The notes beneath the pieces are model-generated. The model did no database searches. It saw nothing but the letters and a program-made list of their open reading frames with translations, and was not told the DNA's origin. Both the position numbers and the translations under genes were made by a program. Below, piece by piece: positions 3,927 through 38,943 of a stretch of DNA of 47,714 bases. How positions within the stretch are numbered: position 1 is the stretch's first letter; each line of letters opens with the position of its first letter. The DNA comes from a virus (taxonomy: Duplodnaviria; Heunggongvirae; Uroviricota; Caudoviricetes): IMG/VR virus record IMGVR_UViG_2541047681_000007. The stretch is one strand, 5' to 3'.

Positions 3927-4511
3927 TTACACGGTGTCTGGTTCTTCTGGCCACTCAATATCCGGTGCAGTTGTTGTATTAACACGGTTCAGCAACACCC
4001 GATATTTTTTCCAGGCTTCCAGCAATGAGGTTTCTTCCTCCGTTGCGATCTCCAGATCTACAGCATCCTGAAGTGGCGCTATATGCTCACTGGCTACCTG
4101 CATCAGGCTGTTTTTTGTTTCTTCCGCCTCCCGGATCCGGAACAGTTTTTCTGCTTCCGTATCCTTCACCCAGGCTGTGCCGTTCCACTTCTGATATTCC
4201 CCTTCCGGCGATAACCAGGTGACATTTTCCGGTAACGAGCCAAGTTCAGAAATAAATAACGCGTCGCCGGAAGCCACGTCATAGACGGTTTTTCCCCGAT
4301 GATCTTCAACGAGATGCCACGATGCCTCATCACTGTTGAAAACAGCCACAAAGCCAGCCGGAATATCTGGCGGTGCAATATCGGTACTGTTTGCTGGCAG
4401 ACCTGTATGAGGCGGAATATATGCGTCACCTTCACCAATAAATTCATTAGTTCCGGCCAGCAGATTATAAATTTTTATGGTCCGTGGTTGTTCACTCATT
4501 CTGAATGCCAT
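3927..4511 (-). CDS. tfa: Tail fiber assembly protein Tfa
   Basis: 194 aa, [51 protein letters not shown] typical lambdoid Tfa; start overlaps stf stop. Confidence 0.85.
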
Positions 4512-36058: not shown

Positions 36059-36448
36059 TCAGGCGGCTGCACCCGCCGTTTTCTCGTACTTACTGATAGT
36101 GATCTCGACCTTCCCTTCCGGGATAACCGGTCCCCACTCCACCAACATTCTTTTCACCTGGCTGTCGTCTTCCCACACACCCGCGTGGGTCAGGGCGTCA
36201 AACAGCGCCTTGTTATAGTTGTCCAGATCGCGGATCCTGTTATCCGGAGGAAACAACACGATCTCCACTGAAGCAGGTGCCGACGTTGGTTTCGGCAGAC
36301 GACGTAACTGCTCAACTATTGCTGCGCACGCCGCGCTCTGAAATTTTCGCCCAGCCGCGCTTATCAGGCTCTTACCAGAAAATGCCCCTTTGTTGGGGTG
36401 TCGCCAGTACGTGTTCACGCTGGGCGGGAAAGGCAGGATTAGCTTCAT
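36059..36448 (-). CDS. rusA: Holliday junction resolvase RusA
   Basis: 129 aa with conserved RusA pattern (PPSVNTYWRH..., DLDNYNKALFDALT, VWEDDSQV). Confidence 0.85.
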   Translation of the reverse strand: MKLILPFPPSVNTYWRHPNKGAFSGKSLISAAGRKFQSAACAAIVEQLRRLPKPTSAPASVEIVLFPPDNRIRDLDNYNKALFDALTHAGVWEDDSQVKRMLVEWGPVIPEGKVEITISKYEKTAGAAA

Positions 36449-36771
36449 ACTTTCAGGCCTCTCTCATGTAACCAGTGGGCTGCACGCAACCTGGCGTTCT
36501 CCTCACCGGCAAGCAGTGCGCGGATGATACCGACCGCCTCGCTGTCGTCGTCCTTCACCGCGGTATGAAGCGTGATCCCCCGGGCCACGCCACGCTTTAT
36601 CGTGATGACGCCTTTTTTCTCCAGTGCGCGAAGATGCTCCACCGCTGCATTCACTGAACGGTATCCCAGCATGGTTGCCACCTCCTGATTGGTTGGCGGG
36701 AAGCCACGTTCTTTCTGGTAAGAAATCAGCATATCCAGCACCTGCTGCTGGCATTGAGTTAACGTCGTCAT
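36445..36771 (-). CDS. LexA-like winged-helix DNA-binding protein
   Basis: QQVLDMLISYQKERGFPPTNQEVATMLGYRSVNAAVEHLRALEKKGVITI closely parallels LexA N-terminal DNA-binding domain; no peptidase domain. Confidence 0.6.
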   Translation of the reverse strand: MTTLTQCQQQVLDMLISYQKERGFPPTNQEVATMLGYRSVNAAVEHLRALEKKGVITIKRGVARGITLHTAVKDDDSEAVGIIRALLAGEENARLRAAHWLHERGLKV

Positions 36772-37103
36772 GCCGCCATCTCCCTGACCAGTTTTTCCGC
36801 CTGGCGAGTCAGGCCCAAAATCACCCGGGGATCGTTAGTGCCGACATAGAAATTGCGCACAGGTCTGGTTTCACGAACTGGTTGTGGTTCCGGCTCCTGC
36901 GCTCTCTCAGCCAGGCGTGGGAAATGTCTGCGTGTATCTCCTTCACAACGGTGAGCCACACGCCCACTCTGACGTAACTTGCTTGCTGACTGCAGAACGT
37001 GCTGCCGTGAGTAACCTGCAAAAGCATCCGCAATGTCTCCGGAAGTACCCCCCGGATGGGCTTCAATGAATTTCTGAACTTCATTCAAAAGACTCATGAT
37101 CAC
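36768..37103 (-). CDS. Hypothetical phage protein
   Basis: 111 aa ORF translationally coupled (ATGA overlaps) to neighbours in early-right operon. Confidence 0.45.
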   Translation of the reverse strand: MIMSLLNEVQKFIEAHPGGTSGDIADAFAGYSRQHVLQSASKLRQSGRVAHRCEGDTRRHFPRLAERAQEPEPQPVRETRPVRNFYVGTNDPRVILGLTRQAEKLVREMAA

Positions 37104-38041
37104 CCCCTGAATCCTGCCGGGATCTGGCTATAGTCCACGTTGTCGTAACTGGCTTTGAAGTACGGGTCTTCGCGTTTTTCTGTGTGCGTGCTGACGGACG
37201 GCGATAAGCGCAGGGAAAGCTCATCCCATTTTTCCCGCAACTTCGACGGGCTGAGCACGTTACGGCACCAGAACGGATCGCGGCTGACGCGGCTGTACAT
37301 CTCGCAGATTTGTTTGTGAGTACGACCATCCTGCACACACATCAGGCGAATTTCGTTTGCCCATGCTGTCCAGTTCGGTTCTTTGGGACGAACCACCTCG
37401 CCGTCACATTCGGCGGCCTGCTCGTACAGGGCAATGATTTTTTTCCAGAGCCACTGTGCGCAGGTCAAATCATCCTGCGTTCCCCACTGGCGCTTTTTAG
37501 GGCTGAATACAACCGCATCAGGATGGCGAGTTAAAAAATCCTGTTCAGCCGTCTGCGTGTCCGGTTGCGAAGCGTCCGGACGAGAAGGTTTTTTATCTGA
37601 CGGATCATGTTTTGATTTTACTGACGGATCCCCGCCAGATTCTGACGGGTGAAAACCCGCTTTTTTGCCAGATTTCGACGCATCAAATTTTGACGGGTCA
37701 GATTTTGATGCGTCAGATTTTGACGGGTCAGAATCTGACAGTTGAGAAAATGCCGCTGCCTGAAGCTTCGCAACGTTAAGCTGATAAACATTCGACGCAT
37801 TGCGGTTACCCTGGCGACGCGCCTTACGCGTTAACCAGCCTTCTGCTTCCAGCCGTGCGATAGCCGTTCTGACGGTACTCATCCCCGCGCCAATCTGACG
37901 GGCAATAGTTTCAATTGATGGCCAGCACACACCTTCGTCATTACTGAAATCAGCCAGGCGGGCCATAATTGCCACGCTGGATAATTTCATGCCTGACGCA
38001 GCGCAACCATCCCATACATAGCCGGTTAATTTAGTGCTCAT
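37100..38041 (-). CDS. Replication initiation protein, O-like (N-terminal wHTH, internal ori iterons)
   Basis: N-terminal winged-helix (SIETIARQIGAGMSTVRTAIARLEAEGWL), central repetitive DxSKS region encoded by iteron array, position downstream of cro/CII-like. Confidence 0.6.
   Translation of the reverse strand: MSTKLTGYVWDGCAASGMKLSSVAIMARLADFSNDEGVCWPSIETIARQIGAGMSTVRTAIARLEAEGWLTRKARRQGNRNASNVYQLNVAKLQAAAFSQLSDSDPSKSDASKSDPSKFDASKSGKKAGFHPSESGGDPSVKSKHDPSDKKPSRPDASQPDTQTAEQDFLTRHPDAVVFSPKKRQWGTQDDLTCAQWLWKKIIALYEQAAECDGEVVRPKEPNWTAWANEIRLMCVQDGRTHKQICEMYSRVSRDPFWCRNVLSPSKLREKWDELSLRLSPSVSTHTEKREDPYFKASYDNVDYSQIPAGFRG
37596..37745. repeat. Iteron array (putative phage replication origin) inside O-like gene
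   Basis: eight copies of about 11 bp core TYTGACGGRTC, the last four in tandem with 14-16 bp spacing, flanked by AT-rich stretch. Confidence 0.55.
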
Positions 38042-38389
38042 GACCGACCTCTATTTCCCTGAATTTACGACGAAACTGTTCGAGCGGGCTGAAGCACTCA
38101 TGCTCATAGCCTTCACGGAGGTAGATAACCCGTTGTGTTTCCGGCTCCCAACGAATGACTCTGACGGGCACTCCGTAGTGATCTTTGAACCAGCGGTTAA
38201 CTTGTCGCAAAGGACTGTCTCCTTCTGCCGGTTGAAATCCCCCACAGCCCACTCAGCAAAGCTGTGGGTTACAATTTCCCTGTCACCTGGTACATTTACT
38301 GCATAGCAATACTCCACCTTCGCTTTTCCACCCGGTACAGGAAGCGCAATCAGTTGCGAGCGACGGTAGTGTGTTGTTAAACTGTTCAT
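38031..38389 (-). pseudogene. Small early gene split between two frames at a G5 homopolymer (frameshifted)
   Basis: frame A (38051..38389, [10 protein letters not shown]...AEWAVG) and frame B (38031..38252, ...[36 protein letters not shown]...) join at minus-strand GGGGG run (38239..38243). Confidence 0.4.
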
Positions 38390-38943
38390 GCGTTAGTTTC
38401 TCCACAACCAGAAGCAATCGACGCCACGACGCCCGGAGCTGCACACTCGCGGGCGTCATTACTTTCTGAAACGCAAAAAATTTTGTAGACAAGTGCTGCA
38501 TGCTCCTGCAGCTTCGAAATTGAGAGGTACAGCTCGTCGTTAATTGCTGTCTTCTCATGCGGTTCCACTACACCGTCTTCGATTGCCGAACGAATCTGTT
38601 TTGAATAACTGCCGATCTGTTCAATGACTTCCAGTAAACGCTGGTTAATATCGGCATTGTCCACATCCTCGACGTCAGGAAGAGACACAAAGACGCCATT
38701 TGCAGACTGCGCCACAGCGTCAGCAATGAAGTGAGTGCCACCAGCACGTTGTAAAATCATTGCCCATCCCAGCGGGAAAATCTGATCGCCATCGGCACGA
38801 AGGCGGTTAAATAATGCGTTCTCTGTTACATCCAGCCACTCAGCAGCTTCAGCGTAACCCCCCGGCAACGCCGCGATAGTTTTTCTGACAGCTTTCACGT
38901 ACCACTCAGGCTGTTTTTCCACTTTCCAGTGATGATTACCCAC
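38386..38943 (-). CDS. CII-like regulatory protein (phage 186 CII/CP76-type)
   Basis: 185 aa immediately downstream of cro; pattern ...[29 protein letters not shown]... resembles CP76-type CII proteins. Confidence 0.5.

Follow-up and report, generated by a model that had tools for sequence, protein, structure and literature searches.

Iteron-like repeats within an O-like initiator gene as probable initiator-binding sites of a lambda-type prophage origin

The window analysed here is the whole 47,714-nucleotide (nt) stretch of virus record IMGVR_UViG_2541047681_000007 (Duplodnaviria; Heunggongvirae; Uroviricota; Caudoviricetes). On its minus strand it carries a gene for an O-like replication initiator (37100..38041), and inside the coding sequence of that gene lies an array of short repeats (37596-37745), just as a first-pass annotation of this DNA had it. 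We consider it probable that these repeats are binding sites (iterons) for the very initiator in whose gene they lie, and that they form part of a lambda-type origin. Comparative evidence supports this reading: across many genera, relatives keep the repeats, at the nucleotide level and at synonymous positions as well, and the repeat type follows the N-terminal domain (N-domain) of the encoded protein. That the region serves as an origin would follow by analogy with phage lambda.

The repeat-finder check proposed in the first-pass annotation bears out the array, as Tandem Repeats Finder detects a 15-nt period (4.3 copies, 37669-37732) and a second repeat search gives the same register. Read along the gene strand, the units are GAC CCG TCA AAA TCT / GAC GCA TCA AAA TCT / GAC CCG TCA AAA TTT / GAT GCG TCG AAA TCT, which encode DPSKS, DASKS, DPSKF and DASKS, that is, the DxSKS linker recognized earlier, which is predicted to be disordered. 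The core sequence put forward at that time, TYTGACGGRTC, has three exact matches where 0.12 would be expected by chance, and seven plus-strand matches within 37596-37729 when up to two mismatches are allowed; the repeats are therefore real, but the count of eight copies was generous, as the eighth (37734) needs three mismatches. Nor does a single core describe every copy, since six are iterons and those at 37596-37606 and 37620-37630 (TCTGACGGATC, ACTGACGGATC) are a different element, treated below. A better unit is the 13-bp near-palindrome GTCARAWYYTGAC (also written GTCAGAWTYTGAC), which at one mismatch or fewer has five sites, all in 37634-37739 and none elsewhere in the 47.7 kb; counted over both strands there are 10 matches against ~1 expected, a number reached by 0/100 shuffles. 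As in origins of the lambda type, an initiator gene here carries in its middle part repeated sites that each have internal dyad symmetry, six in all: five contiguous sites with a 15-bp period (37667-37739), a spacer of ~20 bp and one isolated site (37634-37646). The earlier description of four tandem copies was thus correct in its 15-bp spacing but not in its number, which is five in tandem plus one isolated. In gene direction, the sites are as follows.

37727..37739: iteron 1 (first in gene direction), GTCAGAATCTGAC, 0 mismatches to GTCARAWYYTGAC, both strands.
37712..37724: iteron 2, GTCAGATTTTGAC, 0 mismatches to GTCARAWYYTGAC, in the 15-bp tandem array.
37697..37709: iteron 3, GTCAGATTTTGAT, 1 mismatch to GTCARAWYYTGAC, in the 15-bp register.
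37682..37694: iteron 4, ATCAAATTTTGAC, 1 mismatch to GTCARAWYYTGAC, in the 15-bp register.
37667..37679: iteron 5, degenerate, GCCAGATTTCGAC, in the 15-bp register, with 2 mismatches to GTCARAWYYTGAC and 3 to the 15-mer consensus.
37647..37666: ~20-bp spacer that separates the array from the distal iteron and contains A6 and T4 tracts.
37634..37646: iteron 6, the distal site, which stands alone, GCCAGATTCTGAC (GTCAGAATCTGGC on the gene strand), 1 mismatch to GTCARAWYYTGAC.

A segment of the spacer, GGCAAAAAA..GGTTTT, is kept in phages phiNP and phiP27. On the plus strand, antisense to the initiator gene, the spacer between array and distal iteron also holds a terminator-like hairpin with a T-run (CGGGTGAAAACCCG CTTTTTTGCC; 37646-37669, hairpin 37646-37659), which we treat as a chance occurrence rather than a real terminator, its conservation being not obvious in phiNP or in locus L011. 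A 30-bp super-repeat (Tandem Repeats Finder, period 30, 88% matches) was rejected as the functional period because Pro and Ala codons alternate in the window copy only, and not in the relatives. Similarly, short open reading frames (ORFs) across the repeats (37612..37779 on the plus strand; 37618..37800 on the minus strand) are by-products of the repeats and not genes, and no RNA family turned up near the array when the whole window was scanned against Rfam.

The evidence that carries our reading comes from relatives at 80 genomic loci (one genome per species), together with phages phiNP, phiP27, SfII, SfV, phi80 and lambda. From 63 distinct linkers of the window type we took 284 five-codon units, phased by amino acids alone, the third residue having to be Ser and the fourth Lys, Glu, Asn or Gln; a looser phasing, on Ser at position 3 alone, mixed two registers. 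Ser3 is encoded by TCA in 261/284 units and by TCG in the other 23/284, with no other Ser codon used, and the codons at position 4 are fixed (AAA for Lys in 203/203, GAA for Glu in 50/50, AAT for Asn in 31/31), while Ser5 is TCT in 153/207. In the remainder of the same genes the usage of these codons is 0.26 for TCA, 0.11 for TCT and 0.67 for AAA, with AGC at 0.27. Over the N-domain, 43% of the codons of conserved residues are identical to those of the window's gene (1839/4294); of the repeat codons, 87% are canonical (783/898). Within the unit, the third positions 9 and 12 hold 1.59 and 1.50 bits of information and third position 6 holds 0.44, a contrast from which it follows that the constraint is site-specific and not the trace of a recent segment transfer.

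Reading frame tells the same story. In phiP27 the distal iteron CTTCAGAATCTGGAC is kept and yet read in another frame, so that it encodes TLQNLD where the window has HPSESGG, and four aligned relatives, phiP27 among them, have the distal-iteron core TCAGAATCTGG without variation. Specifically, phiP27 (L083 2918-3016) has lost 1 nt and gained a compensating insertion relative to 37586-37675 of the window, which alters ~9 linker codons (GKKTVLTLQNLDP vs GKKAGFHPSESGG). As far as sequence comparison can tell, the motif is conserved as DNA rather than as protein.

The repeats also vary together with the N-domain. A second N-domain subfamily (L007, L008, L009 and L012; N-terminus MSSKLHGLVWEGCAH...) has a 15-nt unit, YYAANNNNTTGASSSS, which is unlike that of the window and encodes PNIDP, PTVEG, LTVDP and SNIDP; here the DNA unit is constant and the peptide varied, with C4-to-G4 flips turning Asp-Pro into Glu-Gly. 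Motif type tracks the N-domain cluster, with 4.3 type-A sites per gene in 66 genes vs 3.0 type-B sites per gene in 6 genes. Moreover, the N-domain and the repeats recur at 73-83% identity on unrelated C-terminal domains (C-domains), as in phiNP and at many loci that match residues 1-168 only. From their sequences, N-domain and repeats appear to behave as expected of a specificity module made up of a binding domain and its sites. Codon fixation, frame independence and N-domain covariation thus reveal the DNA-level selection, and the specificity for the initiator's DNA-binding domain, that a lambda-type origin calls for, and the caveat of the first-pass annotation, that the repeats might be unconserved in homologs or purely coding, largely falls away. 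A further N-domain subfamily (SfV orf39, L087 2203-2349; L064), the proteins of which also end in DYSQIPAGFRG, has linker repeats of its own (GTGCAGGAGATTCAC.., AGAACCAGTCA) in the same place. The comparison suggests that linker repeats are general for this initiator group.

Beside the iterons lie two boxes, the different element mentioned above, with the gene-strand form GATCCGTCAG(A/T). We regard them as a separate element because they are conserved across subfamilies whose iterons differ: GATCCGTCAGTAA is almost invariant in all three N-domain subfamilies, whatever the iteron type. The Asp codon of the boxes is GAT in every box pair listed and never GAC, by which the GATC is preserved, unlike in the iteron units, where Asp is GAC in 82%. 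The boxes are 24 bp apart in the window type and 18 bp apart in subfamily 2 and in L017, and the DNA between and after them remains A+T-rich while the amino acids vary. The segment 37583-37622 adjoins the iterons on their promoter-distal side, as the A+T-rich segment does in lambda, and has a nearest-neighbour free energy of -47.0 kcal/mol vs a regional mean of -56.1 (standard deviation 3.8). Together with the boxes, it would be the common unwinding element of these initiator genes.

37620..37630: GATC box 1, reading GATCCGTCAGT on the gene strand; its GATC (Dam) site is 37627-37630.
37596..37606: GATC box 2, 24 bp from box 1 and reading GATCCGTCAGA on the gene strand; its GATC site is 37603-37606.
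37583..37622: A+T-rich segment, candidate DNA-unwinding element, 70% A+T, the least stable 40-bp window in the gene.

Two of the relatives, SfII and SfV (L084 5431-6084 and L087 3247-3900), encode a Dam methylase, its gene lying two places downstream of that for the initiator. The window prophage is without a dam gene, and the extra ~800 bp that the relatives carry at this place splits the DNA match in two. It may be that phage Dam and origin control are linked through the conserved GATC sites.

The protein that would bind these sites has a full-length match to PHROG 391 'replication initiation O-like' (expect value (E) 9.4e-136), and its gene, which sits in an early-right operon of the order cI / cro / cII-like / unknown / O-like, is 97-98% identical in DNA to genes called 'replication protein O' or 'primosomal protein' in Shigella phages SfII and SfIV and in E. 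coli phages. Its parts, all on the minus strand, are given below in terms of the window.

37100..38041, minus strand: O-like replication initiator gene, 313 amino acids.
37742..38041, minus strand: coding region of the winged helix-turn-helix (wHTH) N-domain (residues 1-100), presumed to bind the iterons.
37559..37738, minus strand: coding region of the disordered interdomain linker (residues 102-161), which holds every cis element.
37202..37552, minus strand: coding region of the C-terminal helical domain (residues 164-280), homologous to the C-domains of lambda O and phi80 gp15.
37103..37129, minus strand: C-terminal tail SQIPAGFRG, 8 of the last 9 residues as in E. coli DnaT.

The N-domain matches Pfam HTH_36 at residues 23-70 (E 4.3e-11). 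An AlphaFold2 model built on 27 homologs places helices at H3-16, H20-31, H43-50 and H54-66, then H90-98 (block means of the predicted local distance difference test (pLDDT) 62-88), and the modelled strands E70-73 and E85-88 may be read as the wing of a winged helix; a PDB sequence search gave weak matches to MarR-type wHTH chains only. Phage_rep_O, the N-domain type of the lambda O family, was absent from a Pfam scan at E up to 0.01, which returned HTH_36, GntR and related families instead, and the tblastn alignment to lambda O starts at lambda residue 78. The C-domain, in turn, is homologous to that of the lambda O family (tblastn with lambda O residues 78-270, 30.6% identity over ~200 residues, E 3e-23; BLASTP against phi80 gp15, 36% identity, E 4e-25), and its helices have pLDDT block means of 70-92 over residues 190-280. 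We reject phi80 gp15 as a full-length homolog, since only the C-domain aligns, and the source name 'Replication protein 15' on protein P0081 presumably reflects a gp15-like C-domain.

Between the two domains, pLDDT falls below 50 for residues 102-161 and is higher on both sides. The length of this linker differs among homologs by whole units of five residues, such that near-identical proteins have 303, 313 or 323 residues, and a first phasing pass gave ~3 to 9 amino-acid-defined five-codon units per homolog. Two E. coli chromosomes (L003 and L004) have a copy that lacks the first 78 codons, and with them the DNA-binding domain; these copies match residues 79-313 only, with the remainder, repeat-coding region included, at 99% identity by tblastn, and they probably belong to truncated, defective prophages.

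A plausible course of events, for which lambda is our model, is that the winged-helix N-domain of the O-like protein, probably as dimers, would bind the six 13-bp near-palindromes; that the resulting nucleoprotein complex would destabilise the adjoining A+T-rich segment 37583-37622, which would open; and that the C-terminal part of the protein would then bring the host replicative helicase. We infer all three of these steps, the binding by the N-domain, the unwinding at the A+T-rich segment and the route of helicase recruitment, by analogy. The DxSKS peptide repeat would then be a by-product of an origin written into a structurally unconstrained linker, and the number of iterons could change by slippage with the frame intact because the period is a multiple of three.

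Other functions for the repeats have to be weighed against this one. The sites might be bound by the O-like protein for regulation (autorepression, copy control or handcuffing, incompatibility) with the origin elsewhere in the phage: DNA-level conservation and N-domain covariation show that there is a DNA function but not which one, and plasmid iterons are known to serve initiation and regulation alike. However, the layout is collinear with two experimentally defined origins, the adjacent low-stability segment is conserved regardless of iteron type, and sites ~300-400 nt into a gene, with no sigma-70-like promoter found in a scan of 37000-38600, would be poorly placed as operators, so that we judge a purely regulatory role unlikely. 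Alternatively, another factor, be it a host protein or another phage protein, might recognise the repeats, or they might be structural, for example in phased A-tract bending. There is an A4/T4 tract in each unit, and the GATC boxes are kept whichever iterons a subfamily has, so that at least part of the region would be read by a factor shared among all subfamilies; recognition by another factor is plausible for these boxes. For the iterons it is quite unlikely, as each N-domain subfamily of the encoded initiator has iterons of its own type; in addition, N-domain and repeats move as one module, and a 15-bp period would be out of phase with the helical repeat of DNA as regards bending. Finally, the repeats might be nothing but coding sequence, the product of slippage during replication in a low-complexity Ser/Asp/Lys linker. 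In favour of this, the region is disordered, copy number differs by whole five-residue units among close relatives, and most units are missing from some relatives. We nevertheless hold it to be highly unlikely, since codons and reading frame largely exclude it: synonymous positions are nearly fixed across many genera where the N-domain approaches synonymous saturation, TCA, the Ser codon preferred here, is not the one most used elsewhere in the genes (0.26 vs 0.27 for AGC), subfamily 2 keeps its DNA unit as the peptide varies, and phiP27 keeps an iteron in a different reading frame.

Several observations weigh against reading the repeats as the iterons of an origin. Three near-identical proteins (P0016, P0019 and P0029) are without most of the repeats, the loss of which the protein evidently tolerates, though the prophages in question may be replication-defective. 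At 15 bp centre to centre, the sites stand far closer together than those of lambda (20-24 bp) or phi80 (~21 bp), and perhaps not all of them could be occupied simultaneously. The A+T-rich segment, which the first-pass annotation had rightly placed next to the repeats, is only moderately unstable, as a near-identical 40-bp window from 37586 ranks at about the top 8% of the 47.7 kb. The window has no lambda-P, DnaC-like or DnaB-like gene that could serve the step after unwinding. Lastly, literature searches on the iteron sequence, on the origins of SfII and SfIV and on iterons in prophage initiator genes found no description of the sites or origin of this family.

The want of a helicase loader brings us to the C-terminus of the initiator. 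Unlike in the lambda O family, there is no helicase-loader gene (P) immediately downstream, and tblastn of the 47.7-kb window with lambda P, phi80 gp14, E. coli DnaC and the DnaC-like and DnaB-like proteins of phiP27 gave no homolog (best E 0.006). The protein does end in SQIPAGFRG, to be compared with SQIPPGFRG in E. coli DnaT, and some homologs match 13 of the last 17 residues of DnaT. The alignment of the initiator to DnaT is limited to these last 9 residues and does not extend to the DnaT N- or C-domain, and Pfam and NCBIfam scans of the initiator gave no match to the DnaT family; we therefore reject the identity as DnaT (primosomal protein I) that is found in some records, the tail motif being all that the two have in common. 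At 44 of 81 loci the initiator ends in ..GFR(x0-2), and the tail is retained even where the C-domain has been swapped. Among these tailed initiators, 43/44 lack a P-like or DnaC-like gene in the ~2-2.5 kb that follow downstream; only L064 departs from this. Conversely, all initiators that end in ..W(N/D)..(A/G)WE(N/D)(T/V)L, and that of L008, have a lambda-P homolog downstream (E 1e-31 to 1e-42), and phiP27 has its own DnaC-like and DnaB-like genes and no tail. The tail and a downstream P-like or DnaC-like gene are almost mutually exclusive.

Literature searches on the C-terminal tail of DnaT found no stated function, and according to a 2026 structural paper (PMC13377028) it is still unknown how DnaT recruits DnaB/DnaC. 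As a hypothesis only, the tail could be a host-factor recruitment peptide that replaces P. A tentative extension, which we hold to be possible and no more than that, is that this O-like family initiates without a phage helicase loader, such that the slippage-tunable, in-frame 15-bp array builds the complex and the tail (..IPxGFRG), taken from host DnaT, recruits the helicase-loading machinery in place of lambda P. If this were true, the tail would identify the DnaT surface used for hand-over to DnaB/DnaC, and the DnaT-like tail is possibly a more useful lead for replication biology than the origin itself.

The genes downstream of the initiator include a match to PHROG 1324 'transcriptional activator', a protein with a LexA DNA-binding domain and a 129-residue ORF which we read as RusA-like by synteny with the SfII record. 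The first of these, a 111-residue ORF on the minus strand (36768-37103), has a GTG start (37101-37103) that overlaps the initiator stop codon (37100-37102) and matches PHROG 23071 as well as PHROG 1324, with no Pfam or NCBIfam match. The second, a 108-residue protein two genes downstream of the initiator (36445-36771, minus strand), consists of the LexA DNA-binding domain alone (Pfam LexA_DNA_bind, E 2.9e-19), without a peptidase domain. Elsewhere, the only RNA family match of the window is a full-length Rfam match to IS009 (RF02111) at 3970-4168 on the minus strand (225 bits, E 2.8e-55).

The array locates the probable origin of a group of prophages (SfII, SfIV and relatives) that is very common in E. 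coli, Shigella and other enterobacteria, in which the gene is annotated merely as 'helix-turn-helix protein' or 'primosomal protein', and it marks a short fragment as a candidate for origin, incompatibility or phage-exclusion effects. It also offers a natural example of a cis-acting DNA signal within a disordered linker, visible in codon fixation and in a frame-shifted conserved site, and a slippage-tunable array explains the five-residue steps in protein length. We regard the tight in-frame iteron geometry and the exclusivity of tail and P gene as the parts most worth attention.

Among known origins, those of plasmids have iterons of 17-22 bp placed about two helical turns apart. The window's array departs from this type, in which direct repeats ~22 bp apart lie in non-coding DNA beside rep, as its repeats have a 15-bp period, are contiguous and are intragenic. 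The origins E. coli oriC, in its 13-mers, and P1 oriR have GATC sites in the unwinding region; the window resembles them in having two nucleotide-conserved GATC sites in a low-stability segment beside the initiator sites, and differs in that two such sites are all it has.

The closest likeness is to the origins of lambdoid phages. The lambda origin, made up of iterons and an A+T-rich tract, sits in the central part of O, and the number of iterons varies between four and six (six in Stx phages), the extra iterons lengthening O by 13 residues (PMC7466680). As in the Stx phages, iteron number differs between relatives of the window and alters initiator length, here in steps of five residues; the Stx phages, however, have a true lambda O and lambda iterons, whereas both the N-domain and the iteron sequence differ in the window. 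In the lambda record, four iterons at O codons ~116-144 are followed by an A-rich stretch, by SSENSGESSD and by the C-domain, and in the phi80 record four annotated gp15 sites take the same relative position. Lambda, phi80 and the window thus share one order, that is, DNA-binding domain, iterons, A+T-rich segment, short conserved junction and C-domain, so that the lambda-like arrangement suggested by the first-pass annotation holds; L011 and L017 further share with lambda and phi80 the junction SS(E/Q/G)NS(D/G)ES right after the A+T-rich part. With phi80 the window has in common this architecture and a C-domain 36% identical, but the N-domain is unrelated at the sequence level, the phi80 sites have a period of ~21 bp and phi80 has a P-like gene 14. 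With lambda it has in common a probable origin in the middle of the initiator gene, sites with dyad symmetry, a linker-coding region and a homologous C-domain. It differs from lambda in an N-domain from another Pfam family (HTH_36), in sites of 13 bp with a contiguous in-frame 15-bp period where the sites of lambda are 18 bp long, spaced by 20-24 bp and in mixed frames, in a weaker A+T-rich segment that carries two GATC boxes, and in having no P gene. With these differences, it is very probably another member of the lambda-type class in which the origin lies inside the initiator gene.

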